Assembly: GCA_964653055.1 (NCBI GenBank)
Contig: CAZZCA010000008.1
Location: 5,371 to 69,370 of the forward strand
Length of the DNA: 64,000 nt
From: an uncultured Desulfobulbia bacterium
Lineage (GTDB): Bacteria; Desulfobacterota; Desulfobulbia; Desulfobulbales; SURF-16
Reading direction: 5' to 3'
Every line of letters begins with the position of its first letter. The stretch's first letter is position 1. Positions 36,694 through 52,745 of the stretch are shown piece by piece. Made by a program: the position numbers and the translations under genes. The notes under the pieces are model-generated. The model had not been told where the DNA came from and made no database searches. It saw only the letters and a list, made by a program, of their open reading frames with translations.

Positions 36694-37245
36694 ATGACAT
36701 TGTCTTCCTTACCAAATATTCTCACTGCTTACCGTTTTGTGGTGGCCCCGGTACTGCTTTTCTGTCTGTATCCCGGGGCCTCTACCTCGGTGAGCCTCTT
36801 TGCCTTTGCCCTTTTCCTTTCTGCGGCTCTTACTGACCTGGCAGACGGCTATATTGCCCGTAAATACCAGGCAGAAACAGTGCTGGGCAAATTAATGGAC
36901 CCGCTGGCGGATAAGGTTCTGGTGACTGTTGCCCTGGTGATGCTGATCCCTCTGGGACGTATTCCGGCCTGGATAACCTTTCTGATCTTGTCCCGGGAAA
37001 TGATTATCACAGGTCTCAGGGCTCTGGCTGCCGCCTCAGGGATAGTAATTGCCGCAAGTTCTCTGGGCAAAATTAAAAGCATAATTCAGCTTACCTCTCT
37101 CTGCGTTCTAATCTTCCCCTTAGGGGTCTTACCCATTCCCTACCTGCATCAGATAGGGCAGGTCCTGCTTTACCTGGCTCTGGTTCTCACCATCTGGTCC
37201 GGTCTGGACTATTTTTACCGCTTTCAAAAGGTATATCGGGGCTGA
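36694..37245 (+). CDS. pgsA: CDP-diacylglycerol--glycerol-3-phosphate 3-phosphatidyltransferase
   Basis: LPNILTAYR, TDLADGYIAR, GKLMDPLADK, REMIITGLR, LGKIK. Confidence 0.93.
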   Translation: MTLSSLPNILTAYRFVVAPVLLFCLYPGASTSVSLFAFALFLSAALTDLADGYIARKYQAETVLGKLMDPLADKVLVTVALVMLIPLGRIPAWITFLILSREMIITGLRALAAASGIVIAASSLGKIKSIIQLTSLCVLIFPLGVLPIPYLHQIGQVLLYLALVLTIWSGLDYFYRFQKVYRG

Positions 37246-37323
37246 CCTTCCGCTGCTTTTTCCTTCTTTTTAGTCAGTGCTAATTTTTTCTTGACTTCAA
37301 TTCGCCCTTAGTTTAAATGCTAT

Positions 37324-37338
37324 TAATAATTATTATCG
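37324..37338. promoter_or_regulatory. Putative Fur-family (Fur/PerR) box upstream of the cyd operon
   Basis: TAATAAT-T-ATTATCG matches the 7-1-7 Fur consensus TGATAAT-N-ATTATCA at 12 of 14 positions; the region is AT-rich. Confidence 0.4.
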
Positions 37339-37369
37339 TTAACTTAAGCAAACACTGAAGGACATTGTT

Positions 37370-37579
37370 ATGGTCAGTCGAATATTTAATTTTTATCTGG
37401 ATGGCTTTCGCTCCATGCAGGTTGGCAGAAAGCTCTGGCTCATAATTTTTATTAAACTATTTATCATGCTTGTTGTTCTCAAAACCTGGTTTCCAGATTA
37501 TCTGCAGACTAATTTTGCAACGGACGAGGCACGGGGACAGCATGTATTGACAAATCTTATTTCCGCTGCCGGGAAATAA
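37370..37579 (+). CDS. DUF4492-family small membrane protein (cydAB-associated)
   Basis: FYLDGFRSMQVGRKLWLIIFIKLFIM...FPDYL; position immediately before cydA. Confidence 0.85.
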   Translation: MVSRIFNFYLDGFRSMQVGRKLWLIIFIKLFIMLVVLKTWFPDYLQTNFATDEARGQHVLTNLISAAGK

Positions 37580-37617
37580 GGCAAGTAAGTTTTTATTAAT
37601 CGAAGTAGGAGGAAAAA

Positions 37618-39153
37618 ATGATCGAACAAATTGATCTATCACAGGTTAATTGGGCCAGGGCCCAGTTTGCCCTTACCGCAATGTATCATTGGATATTTGT
37701 CCCATTGACCCTGGGCTTGTCGTTTCTTCTGGCCTTTTTTCATACGATCTATGTGAAAACCGGCAATAACGAATGGAAAAATCTCACTAAGTTCTGGATG
37801 ACTCTCTTTGGCATCAACTTCGCCATTGGAGTGGCCACCGGAATCATTATGGAGTTTGAATTCGGAACCAACTGGTCAAATTATTCCTGGATGGTGGGTG
37901 ATATCTTCGGTGCACCTCTCGCCGTGGAAGGAATTTTTGCTTTTTTTCTGGAAGCTACTTTCTTTGCTGTTATGTTTTTCGGCTGGAATCGGGTTTCTAA
38001 GGGCTTTCACCTTTTCTCCACCTGGATGGTGGCCATCGGCTCCAATCTTTCCGCCCTCTGGATTCTGGTTGCCAACGGCTGGATGCAGTTCCCCACCGGT
38101 ATGCACTTCAACCCGGATAATGCCAGGTTTGAGATGCTTAATTTCTGGGAGGTTCTTTTCTCGCCGGTTGCCATCAGTAAATTTACCCACACCACCAGCT
38201 CCAGCTTTCAGTTGGCATCGATTTTTGTAATTGGTATTTCCTGCTGGTATCTCCTTAAAGGCCGGCATCAATTAATGGCCAAGAGAAGTATTGTGGTGGC
38301 TTCGGTTTTCGGGATTGTCGCGTCTGGCTTTGTTGCCTTTACCGGTGACGAGGCAGCCTATGAGGTTGCTCAGAAACAGCCCATGAAGCTTGCCGCCATG
38401 GAAGGCCTTTATGACGGTGAGAAGTCAGCTGCCATTGTCGCTGCCGGAATTCTTAATTCTGCTAAAGAGATTGGTGACAGCCAGGACGCCTTTGTTTTTG
38501 AGGCCAAGGTGCCCGGTCTTCTTTCACTCCTTGCCAACCGCGAGGCCGGTTCCTTTGTTCCCGGCATAAATGATCTGGTTTACGGTAATCGGGAAGAGGG
38601 TATTGTCGGTGCTGGTGAGCGGATTGCCCGTGGTAAACTGGCTATTAAACACCTGGCTGACTATAAAGAGGCCAAAAAGCATGGTGATGATCATTATGCT
38701 GCCCAGGCCCTCAGCCAGTTTGATGATTATCAGGCAGATCTTGGCTATGGCTATCTTGATAAGCCTGCCGATATCGTGCCGCCGGTGGCCACTACTTTTT
38801 ACAGTTTCCATATAATGGTTATTCTTGGAACCCTGTTTCCCCTTGTTTTCCTCATGGCCCTTTTGCTGGCAATGAAGGATAAACTCGAGAGCAACCGCTG
38901 GCTCCTTAACCTGGGAATGGCCTGTATCCCCTTGAGCTATATCGCCTCTCAGGCTGGATGGGTAGTAGCTGAGGTAGGTCGTCAGCCCTGGGCTATTCAG
39001 GGCCTGCTGCCGGTGGGTGTTGCCAGCTCCAACCTGACCACTGGAACAGTGCAGACAAGCTTTTTCATATTCTTTACATTATTTACCGTGCTTCTCATTG
39101 CCGAGCTAAGAATAATGTATAAACAGATTCAGACTGGCCCGGAGGAGAATTAA
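37618..39153 (+). CDS. cydA: Cytochrome bd ubiquinol oxidase subunit I
   Basis: ARAQFALTAMYHWIFVPL, GIIMEFEFG, QPMKLAAMEG, GWVVAEVGRQPW. Confidence 0.97.
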   Translation: MIEQIDLSQVNWARAQFALTAMYHWIFVPLTLGLSFLLAFFHTIYVKTGNNEWKNLTKFWMTLFGINFAIGVATGIIMEFEFGTNWSNYSWMVGDIFGAPLAVEGIFAFFLEATFFAVMFFGWNRVSKGFHLFSTWMVAIGSNLSALWILVANGWMQFPTGMHFNPDNARFEMLNFWEVLFSPVAISKFTHTTSSSFQLASIFVIGISCWYLLKGRHQLMAKRSIVVASVFGIVASGFVAFTGDEAAYEVAQKQPMKLAAMEGLYDGEKSAAIVAAGILNSAKEIGDSQDAFVFEAKVPGLLSLLANREAGSFVPGINDLVYGNREEGIVGAGERIARGKLAIKHLADYKEAKKHGDDHYAAQALSQFDDYQADLGYGYLDKPADIVPPVATTFYSFHIMVILGTLFPLVFLMALLLAMKDKLESNRWLLNLGMACIPLSYIASQAGWVVAEVGRQPWAIQGLLPVGVASSNLTTGTVQTSFFIFFTLFTVLLIAELRIMYKQIQTGPEEN

Positions 39154-39154
39154 G

Positions 39155-40291
39155 ATGATTGGACAACTTGACATATCGACTTTACAGCATATCTGGTGGA
39201 TCATTGCGTCCCTGGTGGGCTCTCTGTTCCTTTTCCTTACCTTTGTCCAGGGTGGACAGACCCTGCTTCTGACCCTGGCCTCCGGTGATGATGAAAAGAC
39301 CCTGGTGGCTAATTCACTGGGACGTAAATGGGAGCTTACCTTTACCACCCTGGTCTTATTCGGTGGTGCTTTGTTTGCCGCTTTCCCTAAATTTTATGCC
39401 ACCAGCTTCGGCGGCGCCTATTGGGTATGGATGTTGATCCTCTTTACCTTTATTGTTCAGGCGGTGAGCTACGAGTTCCGCCGTAAGCCCGGCAACCTGC
39501 TTGGGACTAAGGTTTATGACGTTTTTCTGTTCATAAACGGCTCGGTGGGAGTTTTGCTCATCGGCGCTGCGGTTGCCACCTTTTTCAGCGGCTCTGCCTT
39601 TATCTTAAATGATTATAACCAGGTGACCTGGCAGACCTCCATCAGGGGTATTGAGGCGGCTTTTAGCCTCTTTAACCTTTCCTTTGGCCTGTTTCTGGTT
39701 TTTGTTGCCCGGATCCTCGGTGGTATGTATTTGATTAATAATATCGATCACCCTGAGCTTACTGCCAAATGTCGGCATTCGGTCTGGCTTAACTTCGTAG
39801 TTGCTCTTCCGTGCCTTTTTTATGTACTGGTGAACCTGGTTTTCATGGAAGGTTTTGCCATTAATCCGGATACCGGTGAGGTGTTTATGCAGCCGGGTAA
39901 ATACCTGAATAATATGCTGGCTAATCCATTGATACCCGCCCTGTTGATTGGTGGTCTTGGCGGTGTTATCTATGGTGTTGTGGCAACCAAATTCATGGAT
40001 TCTGATTATGGTATCTGGTTTGGCGGCATTGGGACTGTGCTGGTTGGTCTGGCTGTATTTTTCCTGGCCGGCTTCAATAATACGCCGTTTTATCCGTCGT
40101 ACTCCGACCTTCAGTCCAGCCTCAGCATTGCCAATGCCTCAAGCAGTCACTACACCTTGACTGCCATGACCTATGTTGCCCTGGCTGTACCCTTTGTTCT
40201 GGCCTATATCGTTTATGTCTGGCGCCAGATGGATTGCCGACGGCTGACCATCAGTGAGCTTACCGGGGAAGATGCCCGTAAAATGTATTAA
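39155..40291 (+). CDS. cydB: Cytochrome bd ubiquinol oxidase subunit II
   Basis: GRKWELTFTTLVLFGGALFAAFP, AVSYEFR, SSHYTL; follows cydA. Confidence 0.95.
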   Translation: MIGQLDISTLQHIWWIIASLVGSLFLFLTFVQGGQTLLLTLASGDDEKTLVANSLGRKWELTFTTLVLFGGALFAAFPKFYATSFGGAYWVWMLILFTFIVQAVSYEFRRKPGNLLGTKVYDVFLFINGSVGVLLIGAAVATFFSGSAFILNDYNQVTWQTSIRGIEAAFSLFNLSFGLFLVFVARILGGMYLINNIDHPELTAKCRHSVWLNFVVALPCLFYVLVNLVFMEGFAINPDTGEVFMQPGKYLNNMLANPLIPALLIGGLGGVIYGVVATKFMDSDYGIWFGGIGTVLVGLAVFFLAGFNNTPFYPSYSDLQSSLSIANASSSHYTLTAMTYVALAVPFVLAYIVYVWRQMDCRRLTISELTGEDARKMY

Positions 40292-40303
40292 GAGGAGGAT
40301 ATA

Positions 40304-40396
40304 ATGACCTTAGCATTAATTTTAGGTTGGGTTGCCCTGATTGTTGTTTCATATGAAGGCGCGGTCTATGCCCTTAACAAGACCGGGATTCTTTAA
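40304..40396 (+). CDS. Putative cytochrome bd small single-TM subunit (CydX/CydS-like), 30 aa, absent from ORF track
   Basis: GAGGAGG RBS 12 nt after the cydB stop; MTLALILGWVALIVVSYEGAVYALNKTGIL*. Confidence 0.75.
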   Translation: MTLALILGWVALIVVSYEGAVYALNKTGIL

Positions 40397-40412
40397 TCCT
40401 GTTTAGCAAATT

Positions 40413-40449
40413 CTGCCTCATGTCATTGATTGCAGTTGACATGGGGCAG
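40413..40449 (+). terminator. Hairpin ending the cyd operon
   Basis: CTGCCTCATGTCA / TGACATGGGGCAG inverted repeat; lacks a strong U-tract. Confidence 0.5.
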
Positions 40450-40464
40450 ATAGCTTTCTATATT
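40436..40464 (+). promoter_or_regulatory. Sigma70 promoter of tRNA-Leu
   Basis: TTGACA-17 nt-TATATT, ending 14 nt before the tRNA. Confidence 0.7.
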
Positions 40465-40478
40465 CCACACCACATCAT

Positions 40479-40565
40479 GCCGGAGTGGTGAAATTGGTAG
40501 ACGCACGGGATTCAAAATCCCGCGGATGTACGTCCGTGTCGGTTCGATTCCGACCTCCGGCACCA
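40479..40565 (+). tRNA. tRNA-Leu(CAA), 87 nt, long variable arm, encoded CCA
   Basis: GCCGGAG acceptor stem; D-loop TGGTAGAC; anticodon arm CGGGA-TTCAAAA-TCCCG; T-arm GTCGG-TTCGATT-CCGAC; 3' CTCCGGCACCA. Confidence 0.97.
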
Positions 40566-40595
40566 TATAATCCAATATCATCTGATATTGTCTAT

Positions 40596-40630
40596 AAACC
40601 CTGTCAGCCGTAAGGCTTGCAGGGTTTTTT
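40596..40630. terminator. Terminator after tRNA-Leu
   Basis: AAACCCTG-tcAGCC-GTAA-GGCTtg-CAGGGTTTTTT (GNRA loop, U-tract). Confidence 0.8.
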
Positions 40631-40710
40631 AATTCTGGATCAGCCGAAGGATGAGCTGGGGGTAGTAGGTGATTAGGGCCAAGAGGAGCGAGCAGGCCGA
40701 GGAGGGGCAG
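40629..40710 (-). pseudogene. Degenerate remnant of the dctM 3' end (left island boundary repeat)
   Basis: 68/84 aligned columns identical to 48952-49035, with a 2-nt deletion; encodes LPLLGLL/LLLALITYYPQLILRLIQN* versus DctM LPFLGLLLLTLALITYCPQLSLWLVQK*. Confidence 0.8.
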
Positions 40711-40779
40711 CCCGGCAGAACATTTAGATGGTGTATAGAATTAGTCAGGAGAAGGCTTCTCGGTATTGTTTCCTGTTTT

Positions 40780-42108
40780 TTACCAGCGCCGATACAAATC
40801 TGCCAATTTTTTAATTGGCATTCCGCAGAGCAACCCAAGGATCATAAGCTGATTAATCATGGTGGTACGGAATATGCCAAGCCGTTGCCAGCGCCGAGCC
40901 GATGTTATGGCTTCCCGGGGAAGGGTTATTATTCTGCCCCGACACCGGAGGCGGTGCACAAGCTCAAGATCCTCCATAATAGGCATGGTGGCAAAACCGC
41001 CCACCTCCTCAAACATTCTTTTTTTCATAAACAGTCCCTGATCACCATAGGGATATTTCAATTTTGTCGAACGAAAATTTGCCACCCACTCAACTACCCG
41101 CATTGGCAGCCTGGAATCATTTGTTTTAAAACGAAAGGCCCCTGCTACAGTGGCAGGATTATCCAGGGCATGGATGATCATATTGGCGTATCCGGCTGGC
41201 AGGATTGTGTCGGCGTGCAAAAACAGCAGGATCTGCCCTTGGGCAACACTTGCCCCCCTGTTTAATTGAGCAGCACGGCCCTGGCTAACCTTCAAGATCG
41301 TGGCCCCGCTCTTCAATGCTATTTCCCGAGAATTGTCATGACTGCCTCCATCCACCACAATGACTTCAATATTTTCGGCCCGGTTTATTTGTTTCAGGGT
41401 TGCACCAAGTACCGGCGCCTCATTCAAAGTGGGGATAATAACTGATATAACGGCATTGGAATCAAATATATCTTTATAGTGGGAATTGGAACGGATCATA
41501 TCCAAATCATTTGGCCTGTCCACATCACTTAAAATCGGCAATTCTGCCAAGCGGAGATCAAGCCCTTTGACCTTCTTCCTGGTTTGTTCAAAAACCTGCT
41601 CTGTTCCCCAGTCAATTTCTTTAAATAAGTCCTGGTGTGCGGACTTCATTCCAATAAGGTAATATCCACCATCAGCCGCAGGACCAAGGACAACATCGTT
41701 TTTATTCAAACCCTCCCGGGCACGGGAAATAATATCTGCGGTCAGCCCTGGAATGTCAGTGCCAATGATGATGGTCGCGCCTGTAGCCTCATTTTCCCGG
41801 GTGACCGTTTCGATTGCCCGCTGCATTCGCTGACCAATAGTGCCTGATGGTTGTGATCTGTAATGCAGGTCATGGCCCAGCCAGGCGCGGAAGTCTTTAA
41901 GGGGGGCCCCTGTGCAATATACCGTAACGAGTATGTTTTTTTTGCCGAACTCATTGCGAAAAGACCTGGCAACTCCCACAATGTATTCAGTCATGCGTCT
42001 ATGCAGCTGAGCTGCTTTTTCAGCCCCGAGCGCCGGGATCAATCGGGTTTTTGCCTTTCCTGCCTCCGGAAAACGACAAAAAATCAGTAATCGGCAATTT
42101 AGAGTCAT
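40780..42108 (-). CDS. Fused glycosyltransferase pair: TIGR04282-type (DUF2064/CofC-like) plus TIGR04283-type (GT2)
   Basis: N-half PEAGKAKTRL, IGTDIP, VLGPAADGGYYLIG, SDVDRPNDL; C-half ISVIIPTLNEA, VVDGGSHD, GRAAQLNRGA, LFLHADT, YGDQGLF, PIMED, TSARRW. Confidence 0.88.
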   Translation of the reverse strand: MTLNCRLLIFCRFPEAGKAKTRLIPALGAEKAAQLHRRMTEYIVGVARSFRNEFGKKNILVTVYCTGAPLKDFRAWLGHDLHYRSQPSGTIGQRMQRAIETVTRENEATGATIIIGTDIPGLTADIISRAREGLNKNDVVLGPAADGGYYLIGMKSAHQDLFKEIDWGTEQVFEQTRKKVKGLDLRLAELPILSDVDRPNDLDMIRSNSHYKDIFDSNAVISVIIPTLNEAPVLGATLKQINRAENIEVIVVDGGSHDNSREIALKSGATILKVSQGRAAQLNRGASVAQGQILLFLHADTILPAGYANMIIHALDNPATVAGAFRFKTNDSRLPMRVVEWVANFRSTKLKYPYGDQGLFMKKRMFEEVGGFATMPIMEDLELVHRLRCRGRIITLPREAITSARRWQRLGIFRTTMINQLMILGLLCGMPIKKLADLYRRW

Positions 42109-42212
42109 CGTTGTAATCCAGACATTTTCGAGATCGATTGTCCAATTTGTTCATCACTATAATAGGCCATCTGTGATGGTGGTGAGATCAGGTTTCTTTG
42201 ATAAATAAAGAC

Positions 42213-44054
42213 TTATGGTTTTTGCTTAGACAGTAAAGGTATCGAGGACACTCCGGCTATTAGCAGGACCCCGACGAAAAACTCAGGGGTAAGATTTCCC
42301 TGCAGGACTTCCAGTAGAGAACTTGAGAAAACAATATAGGCTATGCAGGCTGGCAGCATACAGATAAAAGAGCTTATTGCGTAATGGCTGAACTTAACCT
42401 TGGTAAGTCCAAAAGCGTAGTTAAGGAGGTTAAAAGGAAAAAGAGGGATCAGTCGGGTAAAGGCGACTGCTTTCCAGCCATGTCTCTCAACCATGGTGTC
42501 TAGTTGTTGCAATTTCGAGCTGCGCAGTTTTTCTTCTATCCAGGACCTACCGATGTAGCGGGAGATGAGGAAGGCAATACAGGCTCCGACGGTAGCGCCG
42601 CTGATGCTGTATATTACGCCCCATAATGGCCCGAACAGGATGCCGCCGATAATGGTGAACGGCAGTCCTGGAAGTAAAAGTGCTGGAGCCGCAGCATAGG
42701 TCAGCATGAAGATAAGAGGAGCCAGTGCTCCATAACCCTGGATTAGCGATTGTAGTTTCTCTTGATCAAGGTAGTGGCTCATCCCGCTCAGGTGGGCTGT
42801 TGCCAGTGCAATGATAAATGTAATCAGGGTCAGCAGCCGTGGCATATTTATTCGCGGTTTCTTGTCTTCCCCGGTAAAGGTCCTAATCCGGCTGGTGGTA
42901 GGATGTATTTTCTTTTTAAAATGGCGTTTCAACTGCAGGCGGTTGAGGTATGTCCAGGGGGCTTTAGAGCTTTTTGTCTTGCCGGCAAGAGTTGCCTCAG
43001 GGGCAAAAAGTAGATCAAGGATGTGACTGGTTGGTGTGATTGAACCCAAAAAGTTAACACAGCCGGCGCAATAGGTAAGAATCAGTCTGCCATTGGCTTC
43101 TTCTTTTCGCCGTCTTCCCCAGACCTTTGCCAAATCATCATTAACACACCCTACAGACCCTCCTTCGCCACAGCAAAGAGTTTTGAGACTATGGTGTTCC
43201 ATCTCTTTAATCGTTAATGATTTTTCCATGGCTATTTTGCGGATAGCCGCATGAATATGCGTATCATTTCTGGTGCTGCATGGGTCGTGTATAGTGATCT
43301 CTGCTGGAATATCTGCTTTTGCCGGCAGTGATGTTTCCGCCAGATATTCGTATACTGTTTTAACATTAAGGTTATTTCCATATTGCTTGAAGACCCGGTA
43401 GCAGTTAGGACAGGCCACCAGGATATTTTCTACCCCATGCTGTAACAGGTATTCTTTCATTTCACCAAACATGGCATGGAAATGTTTTTCTCTGCCAAGG
43501 TCATGGGATGGTTTGGTGCAACAGTCCAGAACTATTCCGAGATCTGGCAGAGTGGTCTGCAGGTGATCGAAGAGAGATTTGACCCTGCCCGGCCTGGTCC
43601 CGGGAAGTGCACACCCCGGGAAAAGGATGGTGTCGCAGTTTTTCGGGAGGGCGTAGTAGGAATAATGCCTGGAGGCCCCCCGTTTCTCATAACCCAGGAT
43701 AGTGTTATAGGCGGAAAAATCCTCTATTCCCACGGCAACAGCCTCCTGCCGCATTGCCAGAAAGAGTGCTGCCGGGTTCAGTCCGATTTTAGGCGGACAG
43801 CTGTTTGCGCATAGGCCGCAGAGGCTGCATTCAAAGGCAAGCCCTGGGGTGTCCAGGGAAAAACTGGCGGCAATGGCCTTTGGAGAGCCATTTTTTTGGA
43901 GAAAGGAGCATTCTTTTTGACAGAGTCCGCATTCGATACATTTGTCGACATGACACGCAAGTTCTTTCTGAATAGTGAGGCTTTGTGGTGAATACGATGT
44001 TTCAGGCATGATATGTCCGGGCAAAGAGAAAGCTGTATTTATGGCAGGGTCCAA
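42213..44054 (-). CDS. Fe-S/CCG-domain oxidoreductase (HdrD/GlpC-like) fused to a C-terminal DedA/TVP38 (VTT) membrane domain
   Basis: CIECGLCQKEC and CSLCGLCANSCP ferredoxin motifs; PGC, CCTKP, ACPNC, HDPCS, CCGEGG, YCAGC; C-terminal LPGLPFTIIGGILFG...RLIPLFPFNLLNYAFG. Start may be ATG 44009. Confidence 0.88.
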   Translation of the reverse strand: MDPAINTAFSLPGHIMPETSYSPQSLTIQKELACHVDKCIECGLCQKECSFLQKNGSPKAIAASFSLDTPGLAFECSLCGLCANSCPPKIGLNPAALFLAMRQEAVAVGIEDFSAYNTILGYEKRGASRHYSYYALPKNCDTILFPGCALPGTRPGRVKSLFDHLQTTLPDLGIVLDCCTKPSHDLGREKHFHAMFGEMKEYLLQHGVENILVACPNCYRVFKQYGNNLNVKTVYEYLAETSLPAKADIPAEITIHDPCSTRNDTHIHAAIRKIAMEKSLTIKEMEHHSLKTLCCGEGGSVGCVNDDLAKVWGRRRKEEANGRLILTYCAGCVNFLGSITPTSHILDLLFAPEATLAGKTKSSKAPWTYLNRLQLKRHFKKKIHPTTSRIRTFTGEDKKPRINMPRLLTLITFIIALATAHLSGMSHYLDQEKLQSLIQGYGALAPLIFMLTYAAAPALLLPGLPFTIIGGILFGPLWGVIYSISGATVGACIAFLISRYIGRSWIEEKLRSSKLQQLDTMVERHGWKAVAFTRLIPLFPFNLLNYAFGLTKVKFSHYAISSFICMLPACIAYIVFSSSLLEVLQGNLTPEFFVGVLLIAGVSSIPLLSKQKP

Positions 44055-44202
44055 GTTGCCATAAATCTTGGTGTTCTCCTATTTTGTTGTTTGACTGTAA
44101 GTAAGGAGCCATGCCACATTTATTGATGTTAAAGCGGCAATTCCAATATGTAAGCATACAGGAATTGCCTTTGATAGAGCGACAATCTTATGAATACTTA
44201 AG

Positions 44203-44622
44203 TTATTTTTTGACCAACAGGTCACTATATGGCCATTTCTCCACACCGCCTCTTAAGATGGTTAGTTTCTCCTCGGGAACCCCTTGGCTCTTCATGTAAG
44301 AATAGGTTCTTTTGGCCCCGCCTCCGCCTCTGGGACAAACGACAACCACATTGTTGGCGGTGTCTTTAAAGGATTTTACGGCCACGTCGAGCTGTGCCCG
44401 CTGGGCATCTGTTTTGACGGGGTAGGCATTCGTCTCCAGGGAACCGGGAAAATGATGGGCTGTAAATTCATCTTTCACCTGGATGTCGACAATGATCATG
44501 GGCTTATTGTTTTCCAGCCATTGTTTAAACTGATTGGTCTCCAGGTAATTAAATTGCTCAAAAATAAAAGCTGCATTGAGCAGGCAGATAAGGGAAATAG
44601 CAGTAATAGTTAATTTTTTCAT
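44203..44622 (-). CDS. Secreted single-domain rhodanese
   Basis: Signal-like N-terminus MKKLTITAISLICLL; IVDIQ...HFPGS; active loop VCPRGGG; LRGGVEKW; AAGAGG RBS. Confidence 0.85.
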   Translation of the reverse strand: MKKLTITAISLICLLNAAFIFEQFNYLETNQFKQWLENNKPMIIVDIQVKDEFTAHHFPGSLETNAYPVKTDAQRAQLDVAVKSFKDTANNVVVVCPRGGGGAKRTYSYMKSQGVPEEKLTILRGGVEKWPYSDLLVKK

Positions 44623-44726
44623 GTGGTTTTCCTCTTGGTGTAGTAGTGAAATTGTCATACCATTTGAATAATTAAAAACAAGTTATCTCGTATTTTCCGA
44701 TATTGCAAATTGGAAATATCTATAGT

Positions 44727-44741
44727 ATAGCTATTAGCTAT
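44727..44741. promoter_or_regulatory. Putative LysR operator (ATAG-N7-CTAT, T-N11-A)
   Basis: ATAGCTATTAGCTAT, a near-perfect palindrome in the divergent lysR/rhodanese intergenic region. Confidence 0.55.
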
Positions 44742-44779
44742 TTGGTAATTAAATACTTGTTTTCTGGACAAGGAATCTC

Positions 44780-45691
44780 ATGGAAATCAATAAACTTGAA
44801 GCCTTCTGTAAGGTGGTTGAGCTAAAGAGTTTTACCCGGGCGGCTGAAGCGGTGTTTCTTACCCAGCCAACTGTCAGCGAACATATTCGCAGTCTTGAGC
44901 AGGAGCTTGGAGAAAAACTCCTGGACAGGATGGGACGAGTTGTGGAACCGACTCCGGTGGGGCGTTTATTTTATGGATATGCCCGTAAAATTCTTAAAAC
45001 CCGGAATGAGGCCAAGGAGGCGGTGGCACAGTTCAGTGGCAATCTGGTCGGTAGTATTCTGGCTGGTTGCAGTACCATACCTGGAACGTATTTACTCCCG
45101 GAATTGATTGGCGGATTTCGTGCCCGTTACCCTTCCATTAAAACGACTCTGCATATAAGTAGTTCGCGAATTATTGCTGGAAAGGTGTTGGAGGGTGAGT
45201 TGGATTTTGGGGTGGTTGGGGCCAAATGGCGGGAAAGTGGCCTGAACTGGGCCCAGATGTTTCATGATGAGTTGATTCTGGCCGTACATCCTGATCATCC
45301 GTGGGCGATGGACGGCAAGCCGGTGCCATTGGCCAGAGTTATGCAGGAACCTTTTATTCTGCGTGAGACTGAATCCGGCACCAGGAAAGTATTTTCCCTG
45401 ATTCTTGCCGAAAACGGGCTGAAGGAAAACGATCTTCGCGAAGTTGCTGAAATAGGCTCCACTGCAGCAATTAAAGAAGCGGTCAAGGCAGGAATCGGAA
45501 TCTCTATTCTATCCCGGTGTGCTCTTAAGGATGATATTAACTGTGGCCGAATTGCGGCTGTAAATATTCACAGTCAGACACTGGAACGGTCATTTTACCT
45601 GGTGCAGCGTAAAAATAGAGAGCTTTCCCCTGTTGCTTCGGTGTTTTTGGAATATCTCCGGGATAATGCAGAGTCGGTTGGTGTAATTTAG
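44780..45691 (+). CDS. LysR-family transcriptional regulator (resembles the CysL / selenium-metabolism-associated subfamily)
   Basis: HTH FCKVVELKSFTRAAEAVFLTQPTVSEHIRSLE; GCSTIPG; RETESGTRK; IKEAVKAGIGIS. Confidence 0.93.
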   Translation: MEINKLEAFCKVVELKSFTRAAEAVFLTQPTVSEHIRSLEQELGEKLLDRMGRVVEPTPVGRLFYGYARKILKTRNEAKEAVAQFSGNLVGSILAGCSTIPGTYLLPELIGGFRARYPSIKTTLHISSSRIIAGKVLEGELDFGVVGAKWRESGLNWAQMFHDELILAVHPDHPWAMDGKPVPLARVMQEPFILRETESGTRKVFSLILAENGLKENDLREVAEIGSTAAIKEAVKAGIGISILSRCALKDDINCGRIAAVNIHSQTLERSFYLVQRKNRELSPVASVFLEYLRDNAESVGVI

Positions 45692-48600
45692 TCTTGATTC
45701 TTGAGTTTTATGTTATGCGTTGAAAAAGTTTTTTCCCGATTAGACCACAGGGGGCATTTCTGGTGAATACAATCCGAATTTTTTGGGTATTGATTACAGA
45801 CAGGCTTAGAGTCAGCGATTAAGTCAAGGCCCATCTCCCGGCTGATCAATGCCGCCTCCTGTAGGGTGGCAACCGATTCCCGCAGACAGCAACGGGCCCC
45901 TGTCACCTCAGATAGCTTGAGCAAGATCCGACCAACTGCCCCCATGGCCAACTGTCGCCCCTCGGGTGTCATCGGAGTACTCTGGAGAATTATGGCAAAG
46001 CCAATTCCTGCCCCTACAGCCGCCCCGCAATTGCCCATAAAGCCACAGGAGCCCCCTGGCACTCTGGCTCCGCGAGCCAGGGCAAGATCCACCATTTCGT
46101 TCTTGTCGATTCCTTGACTATTAGCAAAGGCGGCAACCATAACCGCTGGAACCAGTAAATGGTGTTCTGGACCATGCATGGGAACAGCCGGATGACTGCG
46201 AATTTTAGTTAACAACGATAAAATATCACTTTCAGTACTTCTTGAGCAGATATGCCTTATCACCTCAGCACCTTCCTGCTGGTGACATGAGTCACAGACA
46301 AAATGACCACCCTTACACAAGACAGAGGCCCCTGTCGAAGATCCGCAATAATGACAGACAGTATCTTTTTCCTGCCATCCATAAACAAGTTCTTGACCAC
46401 AGACCATACAACCGGATGTTAAGTGAGGAAGAGATTCAGGAGCAGGTGAGATTTTTTCCTGGTTTTTAAGCATGGCCAATGGAAATGGCTGGGGATCGCT
46501 CTTGTTACCGGTACAAGCACAGCCACCGGCCATGTCCTGATTACTGACTGCGCCCTGTTTATCAAGTACCCATAATGATGTGTTATCCTCATGGGGGTTC
46601 ATACCCCTGGTCAGCGTGGTGCGCTTACCTTTGAGCAGGAATTGACCATCTTCTCGATAAAGGCCGCCATGGGGGCCAGGATAAATAACCTCGAGTTCAT
46701 CTTGCTCGAAGGCCTGCTTGAAGGCTACAAAGGTAAGAGAATAGAAATCGACTCCCCCAAGTTGGCGATAAGGGAATCGTTTAAGCAAGGAGATATCTCT
46801 GAAACCGGACGCCTGAAGCATGGCCACAAGTTTTTCCTGCTCCATAGCGCCGCCAAGACATTCTCCCCGCAGTTTATGGTTAACCATTATTGATATCGGC
46901 AAGGGACCATCGGTTACTATATCTGAAACCACCAATCGCCCTCCTGGTTTTAAAATTCGGAAGGCCTCTGCCATGGTCTGCCGTTTATCAGCGCTGAGGT
47001 TAATCACACAATTTGAGATTACTGCATCTGCCATCTGATCAGCCAAGGGGATGGCCTCGAGAAAACCTTTGCAGAAATTAACATTATCATAACCGAGACG
47101 TGCAACTACATCTCTTTTGGAATCAGCTGCAAGGTCCAGCATGTCATCGGTCATGTCAATTCCAATTACCCGGCCTTTTCCACCCACCGCGTCAGCGGCC
47201 ATAAAACACTCCACTCCGGAGCCACTGCCCAGATCAACCACAACCTCACCAGTCTCTGGTGCGGCATCATCCACCGGGCTGCCACATCCGTAAGAGCGCT
47301 TACGGCTAACCTCAGGGATATAGCCGGCATCTTGCTGGCTGCCAGCAAAAGGGTTGATTATTTCTTTATTGTCCTTTCTTGCGGCCTGGGCATAAAAATC
47401 ACCCACCAACGACCGGTCTGCGCCACCAGTTAAGGATATCAGACAATTGCAATGAGTAAGGCTTACCCCGGTCTGATCCTCATCGGCAGAAGGGCAATCA
47501 TGACGAACATCGCCCATGCGCAGAATTATCTCTGGAGTTTCCGGCTGATTGCAGTTAGCTGCCTGTCGACTGATCAGGTAGAGGCATATTTTATTATAAA
47601 GTTCAAGGTAGGGATCATGGCCAACCAATTCGCCGGCCTGGATAAAACTATGGTCATGATCACCGCCACCGGTAAGAAAACGGAAAGGATCATCAGCCGT
47701 CCGGGAGTGATCGAGAAGGCTTGCCCGCCGAACCTTATAACTGATTTTGCTATTACGCCATACTTCAGCCAACCCCTGGCTAAGATGACCCATGTTCATT
47801 TCATCTAAAGCCACCAGGGCCGGGGAAGGATAAATACAGGCATCAGGGCCAATGGCCAGGGATTGCCAGCCACTATTGCTGAGATCGTGTCTGGTTCCTC
47901 GAGGTGCCATTACCTGGGCCCGCAGGTAGTCAAAATTGTCAATTATTACTCCCAGTTTGCCGGCAACCTGATGGGCCTTTAGCAGGTTATTGAAAATTTG
48001 CTCAGGAGCAACAAATCTGCTGTCATCGCCTTTACCGCGTTTGAAATACCAGAGGTAGTGAATATTCTTGACTCCCATTTCGGCGGCTACCAGGGTCAAG
48101 GTCGGCAAATCATTTACATTATCACGTTGAACAACGGTGGAAAGGGTTACAGCAAAACCTTCAGCCTGTAACAAATTGACTGAATTAATTAATTTCTGGT
48201 AGGTACCTTTGCCTCGAATAAGGTCATGCCCTTTTTCAAGACCGTCCATACTTAGCTGGAGGTGAAAACGCTTACGGGGCAGGCGGCGCAGATCATCAAG
48301 GTGACGGGGGACAGCCATGCCATTTGTTAATACCACAACATGGAGTTTGGGGTTTGCGGCAAGCAGGTCAGCTAATCGGGGTAACAGGCCAGGGTAGACC
48401 AATGGCTCACCACCGGTAAAGATAAGAAGCTCAAGACCAAGTTCAAGGGCTTGCTTGATTGCCAAATCAAGATATTCCTGGGGAAGATGATCAGCCTGGG
48501 CCGGTGAACTGCTGAAAAGGCAGTGACAGCAGGACAGGTCACAGGCATTGGTCAGGTGAATCCACAACTCCCTTAACCTGGTAAGGGTCAGATGCTTAAA

Positions 48601-48858
48601 TCGTCCCTGATAATGAGCAATGGCCCCGGGATCAATGAGCAGACGAAGACGTTCAAGATGAAAGTCCGGCGATGACTCATCAACAGAATAACCCTGTATA
48701 ACTCTGTCTGCTGATGCTGATGGCACAAACCAGTCCGGAACATCTGGGTTAAGGTAAATGGGGCAGCCGGCAAATTCATAGCGTTGCCAATTAGTATTTT
48801 TAATGGTCCAATTTGTCATAGTTAAGAATTCCCTACTATATAATAACTCTGGATTCAA
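45688..48858 (-). CDS. Radical SAM / degenerate SPASM + ArsM-like As(III) methyltransferase + DUF5714 fusion (start may be ATG 48819)
   Basis: CDLSCCHC (C106-C110-C113), FTGGEP; MTase SYGCGSP, VDLGSGSG, IGIDMT, ISNCVINL, GECLGGA; Cys-rich C-terminus CMVCG...CHYCG...HGPEHH...GSCGFMGNCGAA...RCC. Confidence 0.85.
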   Translation of the reverse strand: MNPELLYSREFLTMTNWTIKNTNWQRYEFAGCPIYLNPDVPDWFVPSASADRVIQGYSVDESSPDFHLERLRLLIDPGAIAHYQGRFKHLTLTRLRELWIHLTNACDLSCCHCLFSSSPAQADHLPQEYLDLAIKQALELGLELLIFTGGEPLVYPGLLPRLADLLAANPKLHVVVLTNGMAVPRHLDDLRRLPRKRFHLQLSMDGLEKGHDLIRGKGTYQKLINSVNLLQAEGFAVTLSTVVQRDNVNDLPTLTLVAAEMGVKNIHYLWYFKRGKGDDSRFVAPEQIFNNLLKAHQVAGKLGVIIDNFDYLRAQVMAPRGTRHDLSNSGWQSLAIGPDACIYPSPALVALDEMNMGHLSQGLAEVWRNSKISYKVRRASLLDHSRTADDPFRFLTGGGDHDHSFIQAGELVGHDPYLELYNKICLYLISRQAANCNQPETPEIILRMGDVRHDCPSADEDQTGVSLTHCNCLISLTGGADRSLVGDFYAQAARKDNKEIINPFAGSQQDAGYIPEVSRKRSYGCGSPVDDAAPETGEVVVDLGSGSGVECFMAADAVGGKGRVIGIDMTDDMLDLAADSKRDVVARLGYDNVNFCKGFLEAIPLADQMADAVISNCVINLSADKRQTMAEAFRILKPGGRLVVSDIVTDGPLPISIMVNHKLRGECLGGAMEQEKLVAMLQASGFRDISLLKRFPYRQLGGVDFYSLTFVAFKQAFEQDELEVIYPGPHGGLYREDGQFLLKGKRTTLTRGMNPHEDNTSLWVLDKQGAVSNQDMAGGCACTGNKSDPQPFPLAMLKNQEKISPAPESLPHLTSGCMVCGQELVYGWQEKDTVCHYCGSSTGASVLCKGGHFVCDSCHQQEGAEVIRHICSRSTESDILSLLTKIRSHPAVPMHGPEHHLLVPAVMVAAFANSQGIDKNEMVDLALARGARVPGGSCGFMGNCGAAVGAGIGFAIILQSTPMTPEGRQLAMGAVGRILLKLSEVTGARCCLRESVATLQEAALISREMGLDLIADSKPVCNQYPKNSDCIHQKCPLWSNREKTFSTHNIKLKNQD

Positions 48859-48951
48859 GTATTGCTCTTCAAACTTGAACTAGGGAATTGCCCAGCTTCT
48901 TTCAGAAGATTTGTTTATGGGGCCGGGTAGGCGCTTGGTCTTTATGGGTAT

Positions 48952-49035
48952 TTATTTCTGGACCAGCCAGAGGCTTAGCTGGGGGCAGTAGGTGATAAGG
49001 GCCAGGGTCAGCAGGAGTAGGCCGAGGAAGGGCAG
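48952..49035 (-). repeat. Intact copy of the boundary repeat (3' end of dctM)
   Basis: 81% identical to 40629-40710, same orientation. Confidence 0.8.
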
Positions 49036-50235
49036 GGTGGCCCGGTAGAGTTTGATGATCGGTTGTTCAAAGCGGTAGCTGGCGAGAAAGAGGTTGAGGC
49101 CCACCGGTGGGGTGCAGTAGCCGATCTGAAGGTTGGTGAGGAAGATGATGCCGAGATGGATGAGATTGATGTCGTAGCTCTTGGCAATGGGGACAATCAG
49201 CGGCACTACCAGGACCAGGGCAGAGAAGATGTCAAGCATGGAACCAATAATCAGCAGAAACACATTTAAGAGCAGAAGGAAGGTGTATTTATTGTTGACA
49301 TATTGGTGGATAAACTCAAATATCCGGGTTGGGATCTCCATATCCACCAGGAAATTGGTGGAGGCCATGGAGGCACCCAGGATTATTAGGATCCCCCCGA
49401 ACAGCATCATTGAATGGACCATTAATCCGGGCAGACGCTGCCAGGAGATGTCTTTATAGATCACCACTTCCACAATCAGGGCGTAAAGAACGGTAACCGC
49501 TGCTGCTTCGCCCACCACGAAAAACCCCCCATAGATCCCCCCCAGGACAAGAAATGGCAGGGGTAGTTCCCAGGCAGCTTCTCTTAGTCCCTTTATAATT
49601 TCTGATTTATCTATGGGTTTATTTTCTTTGGGGGGGCTCTTTTTCATGCAGTAGATGCTGATGATGGTCAGCATCAGGAGGCCGGGGATGAGGCCGGCTA
49701 AAAAGAGCTGGTCGATTCGGGTCTCGGCAATTACTCCGAAGAGGATCAGGGGCAGGCTGGGTGGGAAAAGAAGGCCGATGCTGCCGGACGAGGTGATGAG
49801 TCCCAGGGAGAATTTTTCCGAATAATTATCCTTGAGCATGGCCGGCATGAGCAGGCCACCCATGGCAAAGATGGTTACCCCGGATGCACCGGTGAAGGCG
49901 GTGAAGATGGCACAGATTAGAAGGGCAACCATGGCAAGCCCCCCCGGCATCCAGCCCAGAAGCAGGCGGGAAAGATTGAGTAGCCTTTGGGGGGTATTGC
50001 TTTCCGAGAGGATGGATCCGGCAAAGATGAACAGGGGGAGAGCCAGCAGGAGTGGGGTGTCGGCCAGCCGGGACATTTCGATGATTACCACCGAAATGTC
50101 GATACCAGCCCCATAAAAAGAGATCAGGGCAATAGCGGCGATGACAATAAAGAGAGGGCAGCCGATGACGGCTAGCAGGATGGGGATGAATTTAAAAAGG
50201 ACCATGCTATTTTCCGCCCCTGGCAAGCCCGGCAA
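48952..50235 (-). CDS. dctM: TRAP transporter large permease
   Basis: LLALPLFIFAG, GSIGLLFPPS, TPPVGLNLF; about 12 TM segments. Confidence 0.94.
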   Translation of the reverse strand: MPGLPGAENSMVLFKFIPILLAVIGCPLFIVIAAIALISFYGAGIDISVVIIEMSRLADTPLLLALPLFIFAGSILSESNTPQRLLNLSRLLLGWMPGGLAMVALLICAIFTAFTGASGVTIFAMGGLLMPAMLKDNYSEKFSLGLITSSGSIGLLFPPSLPLILFGVIAETRIDQLFLAGLIPGLLMLTIISIYCMKKSPPKENKPIDKSEIIKGLREAAWELPLPFLVLGGIYGGFFVVGEAAAVTVLYALIVEVVIYKDISWQRLPGLMVHSMMLFGGILIILGASMASTNFLVDMEIPTRIFEFIHQYVNNKYTFLLLLNVFLLIIGSMLDIFSALVLVVPLIVPIAKSYDINLIHLGIIFLTNLQIGYCTPPVGLNLFLASYRFEQPIIKLYRATLPFLGLLLLTLALITYCPQLSLWLVQK

Positions 50236-50701
50236 TTATTTTAAGCAGGTCCCCTGTAAAATGGAGGGTGATCAGAGCAAAGCCCAGGGGGAAGATCAGG
50301 CTCCAGATCCAGGCCGGCATGAGCAGGCTGGTGCCGCCGTATGTCATTTCGGATGAGGTAAAGATAATTGCCGCTGCGGTTAAGGCTCCGGTCACCAGTA
50401 TGGAGCAGAGATTAATGACGAGTTCCAGCCAGGTTTGCACCTTGTTTGGTGCCAGGTAAGAGGCAATGTCAATGGCGATGTGTTTGCCTTCCCGGGTGGC
50501 CACCACTGCCCCCATCATCCCTACCCAGAGGACCAGTTGACGGATTAAGGGCTCACTCCAGAGAAAACCGGTCCCCATGGTGGTGCGCAGGATGATCTGG
50601 CTGCAGGCGATAATGATGATTGCTGTCAGCAGCAGGCAGAGCAGGCCGTCTTCCAGCAGCCTGAGCCAGCGGCTGCCTTTATCAAGAAACTGCAGGCTCA
50701 T
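50207..50701 (-). CDS. dctQ: TRAP transporter small permease
   Basis: Four TM segments; WSEPLIRQLVLWVGMMGA...REGKHIAID. Confidence 0.9.
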   Translation of the reverse strand: MSLQFLDKGSRWLRLLEDGLLCLLLTAIIIIACSQIILRTTMGTGFLWSEPLIRQLVLWVGMMGAVVATREGKHIAIDIASYLAPNKVQTWLELVINLCSILVTGALTAAAIIFTSSEMTYGGTSLLMPAWIWSLIFPLGFALITLHFTGDLLKIIAGLARGGK

Positions 50702-51690
50702 TTGCGATACTGATCAAGGATTTGCATGGTGCTTTGCAGAACTTCCCGGGAAAAGGCCTTGCCGGTGATCTGGCGAACGGTCTGGTCCCGCAGGTTGAGT
50801 AATTCCTCTTCTGTCCCAGGCTGAGGCTGGATCATCTGGACACCGTTTTGTTGCAGGACCTGGCGGGCCTCATGGTTACTTTTGCGGGTATCGGCCAGTA
50901 AAAGGCCGAAATGTTTCTCGGCTGCCTTTTTCATGATGGCCTGATAGGGTGCGGGCAGGCGGGAGAAGTGGCGATGATCGAGGAGGAAGGCTCCATAGGC
51001 ATAACCAAAGGGGATGTCGGCAATATAGCGGGCCTTGGTGAACCATTGCAGGACGATGGAGCCGTAAAAACTATTGAATACCGTTTCCACCATTCCGGTC
51101 TGCAACGAGGTAAGAACATCTGGGATGCCAAGAGGGGTGGGGGCTATGCCCAGGGTCTGCAGATAGGCAGAGCTGATCGGGTCCCCTTCCGGGGTCCAGC
51201 ACCTGCTTTTTTGCAGGTCGGACAAGGTGGTCATGGGGGTGGTTGACATGGTGTAGATAAAGCCGATTTCGGTAAGGGCCAGCAGCTGAAGGCCACGGTG
51301 GCTGAAGACCTGGTCGAAATGGGGCCGCAGACCATGGCGGACCTGATCCACCTCCTGGTATGAGCGAAAGAGAAAGGGGATGCCCATTACCCGGAAATCA
51401 GGGATGATCTCGCCGATACCGGTCATGGTGAAGCCGCCGCCATGGAGCTGACCAACCCGCATCTTGCGGAGCATGGCCTTGTCGTCTCCCATTATGCCGC
51501 CGGGGTAGATCTTAAAGCCGATTTCCCCGTTGCTTTTTTCTTGGACCTCCCGGGTAAAGTCGCGGAACCGTTTCACCCAGATACTGCCTTCCGGCGCTAT
51601 GGAGGCAATTTTGAAAAGATAACGAGGGCCGGCCAGGGCGGGTAGCGCCATACATAGGCTTAAGAGTAGGGTGATGATGGTTGTTTTCAT
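50698..51690 (-). CDS. dctP: TRAP substrate-binding protein (TatP(T)-type DctP)
   Basis: Signal peptide; KIASIAPEGSIW; YPGGIMGDD; LQTGMVE. Confidence 0.9.
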   Translation of the reverse strand: MKTTIITLLLSLCMALPALAGPRYLFKIASIAPEGSIWVKRFRDFTREVQEKSNGEIGFKIYPGGIMGDDKAMLRKMRVGQLHGGGFTMTGIGEIIPDFRVMGIPFLFRSYQEVDQVRHGLRPHFDQVFSHRGLQLLALTEIGFIYTMSTTPMTTLSDLQKSRCWTPEGDPISSAYLQTLGIAPTPLGIPDVLTSLQTGMVETVFNSFYGSIVLQWFTKARYIADIPFGYAYGAFLLDHRHFSRLPAPYQAIMKKAAEKHFGLLLADTRKSNHEARQVLQQNGVQMIQPQPGTEEELLNLRDQTVRQITGKAFSREVLQSTMQILDQYRK

Positions 51691-51691
51691 A

Positions 51692-52534
51692 TTAGAAGTA
51701 TAGCTCGATATCGGCCAGTAATTGTCTGGCCCGTTTTTTGGCAATTTGATTGGCCAGGGTCAGTTCCGGCCTGTCGGTCAGGGGGAAATAAATTACTTCC
51801 TGGAGCAGGGACTGATAAAGTTTACGGTTGAAGGTGGTGCGGGCGTAAGTTTCAGCATAGCTCACCTGGACCGGCAGAAATTGGCGTTTGCTCAGTTTCA
51901 AGGCTCGTTCAAAATGGTTGTGGCTGGCCTTGGGCCGACCCCCGAAAGTAGGTGGCCTGGAGCCGTAAATGGCCCCCAGGAGGAGATGGGCGCCGCCATA
52001 ATAATAGCCATCATCCAGTTCGATGACCTGTTTCATGATTTCTTCCACCTGGACGAGAGCTGCCATGGCCGCCGGGCTTCCTTGCTGGAAATTGATCCAG
52101 CTTGCCAGGCTGTAGCCTCCCCAGAAGAGATGATCGATTTCTCGGCATTGGGCCAGGCTCTGGCTGAATTCAGGGCCGGCATTTTGGGCATTGACTCCGC
52201 ACCTGGTCAGTAGGTTCTGGCCGTAGTCTCTTGCCCGAAAGCTCATTTCCTCTGCCCGCTCCTTGCGCTCGCAGGCGGCAAGGGCGGTGCTATAGGCAGT
52301 ATAGGCCTTGGTTGCCTGGATCAATAATTCAGCATTATCCGGGTTATTGGCGGTCATGCTGTCTATTATCAGGAGAAAGGCCGGGGCACCATCGCATACC
52401 AGATCAAGATCAGACTGGTATTGAAGGCCGGTTATTGCCGGAGGGATCACTGAGTTATAGACCATGCTGGCGCAACCGGTCAGCAGGACGGTCAGCACGG
52501 TGATGATAATATTCTGCCGGAAATGACGACTCAT
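51692..52534 (-). CDS. tatT: TRAP-associated TPR lipoprotein (TatT)
   Basis: Lipobox LLTGC; YYYGGAHLLLGAIYGSRPPTFGG; HFERAL; NQIAKKRA; first gene of the dctPQM operon. Confidence 0.8.
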   Translation of the reverse strand: MSRHFRQNIIITVLTVLLTGCASMVYNSVIPPAITGLQYQSDLDLVCDGAPAFLLIIDSMTANNPDNAELLIQATKAYTAYSTALAACERKERAEEMSFRARDYGQNLLTRCGVNAQNAGPEFSQSLAQCREIDHLFWGGYSLASWINFQQGSPAAMAALVQVEEIMKQVIELDDGYYYGGAHLLLGAIYGSRPPTFGGRPKASHNHFERALKLSKRQFLPVQVSYAETYARTTFNRKLYQSLLQEVIYFPLTDRPELTLANQIAKKRARQLLADIELYF

Positions 52535-52591
52535 AATTAATCAATATATATGGCTGCTGGTCGCTGTCAAGGTTTCGCTTTATCTATCATT

Positions 52592-52621: not shown

Positions 52622-52745
52622 GGTTTGCGTTTTTAAATAAACTTTAATTCATTGCAGGTGTACATGAACACTTATCTGCGTTGGTTTTGCTAATTAGGTA
52701 ATACGAGTTTTTTTTAATTAAAGATGGAATATGAGGAGCTATCTA

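Follow-up and report, generated by a model that had tools for sequence, protein, structure and literature searches.

A decayed dctM tail beside a tRNA-Leu gene suggests an old insertion of a five-gene cluster in an uncultured Desulfobulbia bacterium

Introduction

How does the 3' end of one protein-coding gene come to lie on both sides of a block of other genes? This question is raised by a locus in an uncultured Desulfobulbia bacterium (assembly GCA_964653055.1, contig CAZZCA010000008.1, positions 5,371 to 69,370 of the forward strand; this whole stretch of 64,000 nucleotides (nt) is called the window, and all coordinates refer to it). An intact dctM gene, which encodes the large permease of a tripartite ATP-independent periplasmic (TRAP) transporter, abuts an 8.2-kb block of five genes here called the cargo, and a decayed copy of the last codons of dctM is found at the opposite end of the cargo, next to a tRNA-Leu gene. 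A first-pass annotation, made from the letters alone, had proposed that the cargo entered at the dctM 3' end, that a homologous copy restored the gene and that the old tail was left stranded; as a whole, this interpretation is partly supported. We regard it as probable, with moderate confidence, that the block is an old insertion at the dctM 3' end and that the two copies mark its boundaries.

The phenomenon as such is ordinary: displaced gene ends beside inserted DNA have been known since the case of the e14 prophage and icd. The stranded tail would provide a base-precise boundary (40710/40711) and a rough age of arrival for an unusual set of five genes in an uncultured lineage of marine Desulfobulbaceae.

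The Repeated dctM Tail

The two copies are as follows.

40629..40710, minus strand: decayed dctM 3'-end remnant, 82 nt, corresponding to 27 codons and a stop, with a 1-nt frameshift and a 3-nt deletion
48952..49035, minus strand: tail of the resident dctM, 84 nt, the intact counterpart of the remnant

Both copies are in the same orientation and are identical in 69 of 85 alignment columns (81%). The remnant has a single gap of 3 nt and the resident copy one of 1 nt, and the two TAA stop codons share one column. The repeat 40629-40710/48952-49035 is therefore real, and the earlier count of 68 in 84 columns with a 2-nt deletion was essentially right (82 versus 84 nt). When 40566-40840 was compared with the rest of the window by blastn, the dctM tail matched with E = 3e-17 and the runner-up with E = 0.014. 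The Smith-Waterman score of the remnant is 88; 100 shuffled remnants, each searched over the whole window on both strands, gave a mean of 26, a standard deviation of 2.7 and a maximum of 37, which settles in favor of the repeat the significance that the first-pass annotation had left to a shuffled-sequence test.

The remnant is dead sequence. It translates as LPLLGLL, a frameshift and then LLLALITYYPQLILRLIQN with the stop, as compared to LPFLGLLLLTLALITYCPQLSLWLVQK with the stop for the resident tail. Besides the frameshift and one lost codon, it carries the non-conservative replacements C>Y, S>I and W>R. In a three-way comparison with the nearest relative, five of the seven private substitutions of the remnant are at codon positions 1-2, which fits neutral decay, and two indels come in addition. 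As already recognized in the first-pass annotation, the 69-amino-acid open reading frame (ORF) at 40629-40838 consists of the remnant tail read into an unrelated frame; it overlaps the end of the glycosyltransferase gene of the cargo and would be better labelled a dctM pseudogene fragment than a gene.

The sudden loss of similarity at 40710/49035 marks a real junction because the resident side consists of constrained coding DNA at this point. The outer edge is non-coding in both copies and the repeat may thus once have extended beyond the stop codon, in which case the other cargo junction could be anywhere in 48859-48951. Anchored tests for homology past either edge are marginal (p ~0.05-0.1), and 82-84 nt were taken as the firm extent of the repeat.

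Gene-End Context of the Remnant

The remnant is preceded in the window by the following features.

40436-40464: promoter-like site of the tRNA-Leu gene, TTGACA-17-TATATT, 11 of 12 matches
40479..40565, plus strand: tRNA-Leu with anticodon CAA (ARAGORN; Rfam tRNA model, 54.8 bits)
40596..40627, both strands: bidirectional intrinsic terminator hairpin (folding and shuffles)

The hairpin folds at -20.9 kcal/mol on the plus strand and at -19.1 kcal/mol on the minus strand (z = -4.6 and -4.9), and none of 200 shuffles equals it. On the plus strand it is followed by a U6 tract and ends the tRNA transcript, and on the minus strand it begins 5 nt past the stop codon of the remnant. Hence, the earlier statement that the remnant stop abuts the tRNA-Leu terminator holds. 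The resident dctM has no comparable terminator, as the 66 nt downstream of it fold at -5.6 kcal/mol (z = -1.0), and no more than 93 nt (48859-48951) lie between it and the first cargo gene, which is encoded in the same direction. Transcription of the TRAP operon may therefore read through into the cargo.

The dead copy thus still resembles a genuine gene end, which the live copy no longer does, and this argues that a complete dctM once ended at 40629. We consider this context the best single argument for a former complete dctM at that position.

The Cargo and Its Flanks

The cargo and the genes that bound it on both sides, as assigned by Pfam and NCBIfam, are listed below.

37618-39153, plus strand: cydA
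39155-40291, plus strand: cydB
40711..48951: cargo block, 8,241 bp, five genes with spacers of 69-148 nt
40780..42108, minus strand: fused TIGR04282 (DUF2064) and TIGR04283 (GT2) "arsenosugar biosynthesis" glycosyltransferases, 442 amino acids (NCBIfam)
42213..44054, minus strand: 4Fe-4S dicluster/CCG domain fused to a VTT (DedA) membrane domain, 613 amino acids (Pfam)
44203..44658, minus strand: rhodanese-domain protein (PF00581)
44780..45691, plus strand: LysR regulator of the selenium-metabolism-associated type, divergent from the rhodanese gene (NF040786, 302.9 bits, cutoff 250)
45688..48858, minus strand: triple fusion of radical SAM, ArsM-like SAM methyltransferase and DUF5714, 1056 amino acids (Pfam)
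48952..50235, minus strand: intact dctM, TRAP large permease (PF06808, 277.8 bits, positions 5-413 of 413; TIGR00786, 361.3 bits, cutoff 268)
50207-50701, minus strand: dctQ
50698-51744, minus strand: dctP
51692-52534, minus strand: TAtT-type T-component (PF16811)

The resident dctM is the last gene of a TAtT-dctP-dctQ-dctM operon, with hemL beyond and divergent; it has both the full-length match above cutoff and the dctP-dctQ-dctM context of a TRAP DctM.

The GC content at third codon positions (GC3) sets the cargo apart. All five cargo genes have a GC3 of 0.46-0.51, as compared to a mean of 0.651 for the 14 other minus-strand genes of the window (standard deviation 0.038, minimum 0.586) and of 0.555 for the 33 other plus-strand genes (standard deviation 0.034). 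The low GC3 of the cargo relative to the other window genes is significant (Mann-Whitney p = 2.3e-5). In codon usage, too, cargo genes account for four of the six strongest outliers of the window. The flanking genes are typical, with a GC3 of 0.56 for cydB, 0.69 for dctM and 0.67-0.70 across dctPQM. Since cydB and dctM are typical, the step in GC3 coincides with the repeats. Thus, the composition check envisaged in the first-pass annotation came out as anticipated: the five genes are outliers in GC3 and codon usage with limits that match the repeats, and the cargo shows the distinct composition and sharp limits expected of genomic islands in general. The strand bias of GC3 was allowed for in this judgement.

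This bias runs through the whole window, with a higher GC3 for minus-strand than for plus-strand genes (0.651 and 0.555) and a positive GC skew throughout. Two further plus-strand genes, at 55951-56724 (0.457) and 63018-63698 (0.467), have a GC3 similar to that of the cargo.

Sequence identities point in the same direction. The radical-SAM fusion has a best non-self identity of 51% and the glycosyltransferase fusion one of 56% (in metagenomes), as compared to 80% for CydB and to 91% and then 77% for DctM. More than 100 homologs of the triple fusion occur across the Desulfobulbales at 48-51% identity, and the window copy is equally distant from all of them.

The cargo also differs from what its relatives carry. 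Three Desulfobulbales genomes (L023, L024, L025) have the radical-SAM fusion together with a small DedA gene in one conserved locus away from dctM. This locus is flanked by fpg and, at its opposite end, by genes for 5-formyl-tetrahydrofolate cyclo-ligase, a deacetylase and a response regulator, gatC and gatA; neither a glycosyltransferase, LysR or rhodanese gene nor dctM or a tRNA gene is nearby. The combination of triple fusion, Fer4/CCG-DedA, rhodanese and selenium-type LysR was not met in the loci scanned. If the cargo was inserted, the stranded tail also shows that the cluster travels as a unit, distinct from the pair of radical-SAM and DedA genes that the relatives have fixed at a core locus.

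Relatives, Strains and the Empty Site

If the cargo was inserted, relatives should differ after dctM. The TAtT-dctP-dctQ-dctM module is conserved in seven of seven relatives, namely four loci with 68-74% DctM identity from a scan of a genome collection, two at 77% and one (P0001) at 91% from a protein database. The genes that follow dctM vary among them.

Three relatives: phosphoribosyltransferase-like gene
L001: other genes
Two relatives at 77%: Band_7 and cytochrome c552, respectively
Nearest relative, L005 (P0001): convergent DUF2058 gene, on a 5.7-kb contig that ends there

None of the seven relatives has the cargo downstream of dctM. The outcome that would have spoken against the first-pass annotation, all relatives carrying the cargo in place, was thus not observed, and the cargo shares with genomic islands in general the absence from the same position in relatives, with the caveat that these relatives are distant (DctM 68-91% identical in amino acids) and have rearranged flanks in any case. 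L005 is syntenic with the window over hemL-TAtT-dctPQM at 80-87% nucleotide identity, and its dctM is 84.5% identical in nucleotides gene-wide.

An empty site in the form of tRNA-Leu directly convergent with dctM, for which the first-pass annotation suggested a search, was found in no relative, and all strains are occupied. The relatives of cydB (76-80% identical) have no tRNA after cydB, and the tRNA-Leu/cydB adjacency is lineage-specific. Since no relative shows tRNA-Leu facing dctM, the ancestral convergence of the two genes is read from the remnant alone: the position of its stop codon beside the terminator speaks for this convergence as proposed in the first-pass annotation, and comparison with relatives does not. 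The population of this species is close to clonal (1-2 differences per 20 kb), and the contigs of four metagenome runs have even depth over 40537-53000.

Origin and Age of the Two Tails

The remnant, the resident tail and that of the nearest relative share a shortened C-terminus, PQL.L.L[VI][QE][KN]* (...PQLSLWL-x-x-x-stop), which is missing from the other 118 orthologs among the matches listed; those end in ...LSLFLVRLLG or similar. Owing to this common C-terminus, all three tails belong to one narrow clade and the stranded tail does not derive from a distant paralog.

Of its 84 positions, the resident tail shares 70 with the nearest relative and is thus as close to it as the gene as a whole (84.5%); the remnant shares 65 of 82. 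Three-way comparison assigns seven private changes to the remnant, seven to the relative and four to the resident tail, and all three differ at three sites; this comparison covers 82 nt only and has no outgroup at the DNA level. About 23 of 28 third positions of the resident tail are G or C by our own count, which is dctM-like and unlike the cargo. Hence, the tails agree with native sequence that was duplicated as well as with a donor belonging to the same clade, and give no evidence that a foreign copy restored the gene, as the first-pass annotation had proposed for a homologous copy.

The private divergence of the remnant is ~8.5% plus indels, and the third-position divergence from the sister lineage is ~30%. 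Comparison of the two values would place the event very roughly halfway back to the split from the sister lineage, the nearest relative known, and before the present strain diversity arose.

A Possible Course of Events and Its Alternatives

An insertion could have proceeded as follows. In the ancestral state, dctM would have ended at the hairpin 40596-40627, a two-way terminator that it would have shared with the convergent tRNA-Leu(CAA) gene. In an ancestor of the species, five foreign genes would then have entered dctM within its last ~84 nt, joined in such a way that the reading frame of dctM remained complete next to the operon. A second copy of its last 27 codons would have been stranded beyond the cargo beside the old terminator and left to neutral decay. 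Two versions of the mechanism are conceivable. In one, a circular intermediate equipped with the dctM tail of a close relative would have integrated by a single crossover of the Campbell type; in the other, the incoming DNA would have recombined homologously within dctM at one end and been joined illegitimately at the other.

Several observations weigh against an insertion of this kind. The historical signal is confined to 82 nt, and the resident tail is not detectably foreign (70 of 84 positions shared with the relative; high GC3). The nearest relative has a convergent DUF2058 gene following dctM, and no relative examined has tRNA-Leu beside dctM or beside cydB. In this species, remnant and cargo are both present in every context recovered with the identical CydB or glycosyltransferase protein, and no joint that skips the cargo (~40.6-48.9 kb) was found in the contigs of the four metagenome runs, for which 37000-53000 was compared. 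Furthermore, a donor cluster of the same five genes was not found, as the closest metagenome glycosyltransferase loci are without the other cargo genes, and the low identity of the cargo proteins could partly stem from faster-evolving families. Finally, the cargo has no integrase, transposase, terminal repeats or plasmid or phage relative, and the mechanism is thus inferred.

The main rival explanation is that the remnant is the relic of a second dctM, part of a duplicated or closely related incoming TRAP operon between the cargo and tRNA-Leu that was deleted except for its last 82 nt. The repeats would then not be insertion ends and the cargo could have arrived by any route. TAtT-dctPQM is indeed a portable four-gene module whose flanks differ in each of the seven relatives, and the old split between remnant and resident tail (branches of seven and four changes, as compared to seven for the sister lineage) has a depth that fits diverged copies. 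Yet two events are required, together with the coincidence that the deletion stopped in the same gene that bounds the other side. Moreover, the compositional step matches the repeat boundaries exactly and no further TRAP remnant is visible in the 69-nt spacer. We therefore consider a second dctM unlikely, although it is the alternative that survives best.

Next in order, and likewise improbable, is site-specific integration of the e14/icd type, in which an element with an attachment site in the dctM 3' end brought the replacement tail and subsequently lost its integrase and mobility genes by clean deletion. In topology, the locus is the same as icd/e14/icdC (PMC13626634, citing Hill et al., 1989, PMC210168), the homology ends with the stop codon on the outer side and sharply on the inner side, and the species hosts active tyrosine-integrase islands at the adjacent tRNA. 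However, the cargo contains no recombinase. In line with the first-pass annotation, which saw no integrase, neither Pfam nor NCBIfam identified an integrase or transposase among the five cargo ORFs, all of which are otherwise assigned, and the spacers of 69-148 nt leave no space for a decayed recombinase gene. All five genes belong to one metabolic cluster without phage or conjugation genes, no significant terminal inverted or direct repeats were detected at the cargo ends, and the whole cargo has no match among plasmids. In addition, the divergence and GC3 of the resident tail are native-like rather than cargo-like, and a degenerate form of the tail motif was not found in viral contigs. The motif was likewise absent from a collection of metagenome contigs, which evidently does not contain even this species. 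Since a recombinase is absent and the replacement end looks native, we would prefer a homology-anchored event over a site-specific integrase that was later lost cleanly.

Alternatively, the cargo might be the resident and the TRAP side might have moved, if a rearrangement put hemL-TAtT-dctPQM beside an older cargo and tRNA-Leu and duplicated the tail at the breakpoint. The neighborhoods of both cydAB and dctPQM are shuffled among relatives, and the lineage-specific tRNA-Leu/cydB adjacency is in agreement with such a move. It is the cargo, however, that is the compositional outlier, and the GC3 of dctPQM is typical of minus-strand genes; hemL-TAtT-dctPQM is syntenic in the nearest relative, and the setting of the remnant, complete with gene end and terminator, implies a whole dctM that formerly ended at this place. 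We judge this scenario to be very unlikely. That the two hydrophobic coding tails are unrelated and alike by chance or convergence, for which nothing but the short length of the repeat could be cited, can be dismissed, as it is refuted by the shuffle test, in which no shuffle came near the observed score, by the E-value within the window and by the shared stop position and clade-specific C-terminus.

Returning to the insertion at the dctM 3' end, a farther-reaching claim would be that a whole organo-arsenic/selenium biosynthetic cluster was captured at the 3' end of a TRAP permease gene by an integrase-free, homology-anchored event, and that tRNA-Leu and the dctM tail form a compound hot spot for two insertion mechanisms in one species. 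We hold this extended claim to be doubtful. If a homology-anchored capture did occur, the stranded tail is a datable fossil of the event.

Comparison With Known Systems

The closest known arrangement is that of the e14 prophage of E. coli K-12, which is inserted in icd and has the displaced 3' end of this gene, the pseudogene icdC, at its far side (Hill, Gray & Brody, 1989, PMC210168; PMC13626634). An intact coding gene abuts the inserted block in both cases, a diverged direct repeat of the C-terminal end forms a pseudogene on the far side, and the function of the gene is kept. The e14 prophage has its own integrase and excises, whereas the cargo has no recombinase or phage gene within it, and an unoccupied site or excision was not observed in relatives, strains or the four metagenome runs. 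The dctM cargo is furthermore one metabolic cluster, and its stranded copy is frameshifted and ~19% diverged. Of the features of e14/icd-type integration, the locus therefore has the 3'-end direct repeat with an intact gene and lacks a recombinase inside the element.

Entry of foreign DNA through one-sided homology in a conserved gene, without an integrase, is described for homology-facilitated illegitimate recombination (PMC3240628), and displacement of effector modules of the type VI secretion system in Vibrio cholerae leaves 3' gene remnants (PMC5361080). The proposed dctM event resembles these cases in its one-sided homology, the lack of an integrase and the displaced gene-end fragment as a record. 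The published cases are recent or experimental, whereas the dctM event would be old, with no donor sequence and with joints too old for microhomology to be read.

Putative Function of the Cargo

Judging by the names of the families to which they belong, the cargo genes might form an organo-arsenic/selenium-associated radical-SAM and glycosyltransferase cluster. Cyanobacterial ArsM and ArsS are arsenosugar genes. The cargo resembles the "arsenosugar biosynthesis" neighborhoods named in NCBIfam in that both glycosyltransferase models score above cutoff (TIGR04282, 201.8 bits, cutoff 134; TIGR04283, 249.6 bits, cutoff 182), a radical SAM domain is fused to an ArsM-like methyltransferase and a DedA/VTT membrane domain is associated, as in the relatives. 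It differs in that the ArsM equivalog models of NCBIfam all score below cutoff for the triple fusion (217.7 bits, cutoff 263; 158.8, cutoff 500; 104.6, cutoff 400), so that the methyltransferase would be ArsM-like at the domain level only. The Fer4/CCG-DedA protein gives a partial match under cutoff to NF045663 (diclust_near_Sec). The element handled by the cluster could be arsenic or selenium.

With regard to gene structure, the glycosyltransferase and 4Fe-4S/CCG-DedA proteins are two unusual fusions (40780-44054). In public gene calls, the triple fusion starts at 48819 (1043 amino acids). A split of the Fer4/DedA gene in one public contig (L020) proved to be a difference in gene calling, as the sequence is identical.

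The tRNA-Leu Island in Sibling Strains

The locus adjoins tRNA-Leu(CAA), which invites comparison with tRNA-targeting islands that have P4-type tyrosine integrases. The cargo is set off from the tRNA by the terminator and the remnant and has neither a tRNA-end repeat nor an integrase. In the window, the tRNA-Leu 3' end has no second copy with up to three mismatches allowed, and an Rfam scan of the region matched only the tRNA.

A repeat of the tRNA 3' end and an integrase next to the tRNA do occur in a different island, which is carried by sibling strains (L016, L017, L021). Contigs L016 and L017 are 99.98-99.99% identical to the window up to 40566 and then diverge, and a gene for a 403-amino-acid tyrosine integrase with Arm-DNA-binding, central and catalytic domains starts 229 nt beyond the tRNA (L016 11413-12852). 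Contig L021 shows the far end of the island, where island DNA is followed by a 24-nt copy of the tRNA 3' end minus one G (the repeat of this island being 24-25 nt) and then by the spacer, hairpin, remnant and cargo. The sibling contigs end inside the island, and the window strain is the unoccupied form for it. The tRNA-Leu(CAA) locus is thus a live integration hot spot in this species. The first-pass annotation had held that the target was the protein-coding gene and not the tRNA; this stands for the cargo, which lacks a tRNA-end repeat, and not for the locus at large, since the integrase island of the siblings does target the tRNA.

Over 11.5 kb, 12 of the 14 differences between L021 and the window lie in 40560-40672 (113 nt), beside the far end of the island. 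Among them are two changes in the remnant and, in the terminator stem, a compensatory replacement of a T-A by a C-G pair; the decay changes of the window remnant are present in that of L021 as well. The segment probably stems from recombination with a diverged lineage in which the remnant was already present, which is a further argument for an old cargo event.

In the four metagenome runs, contigs of the species break within tRNA-Leu (40505-40537), where the depth is 20-fold up; because other community members share the tRNA sequence, these breaks are an effect of assembly rather than of biology.

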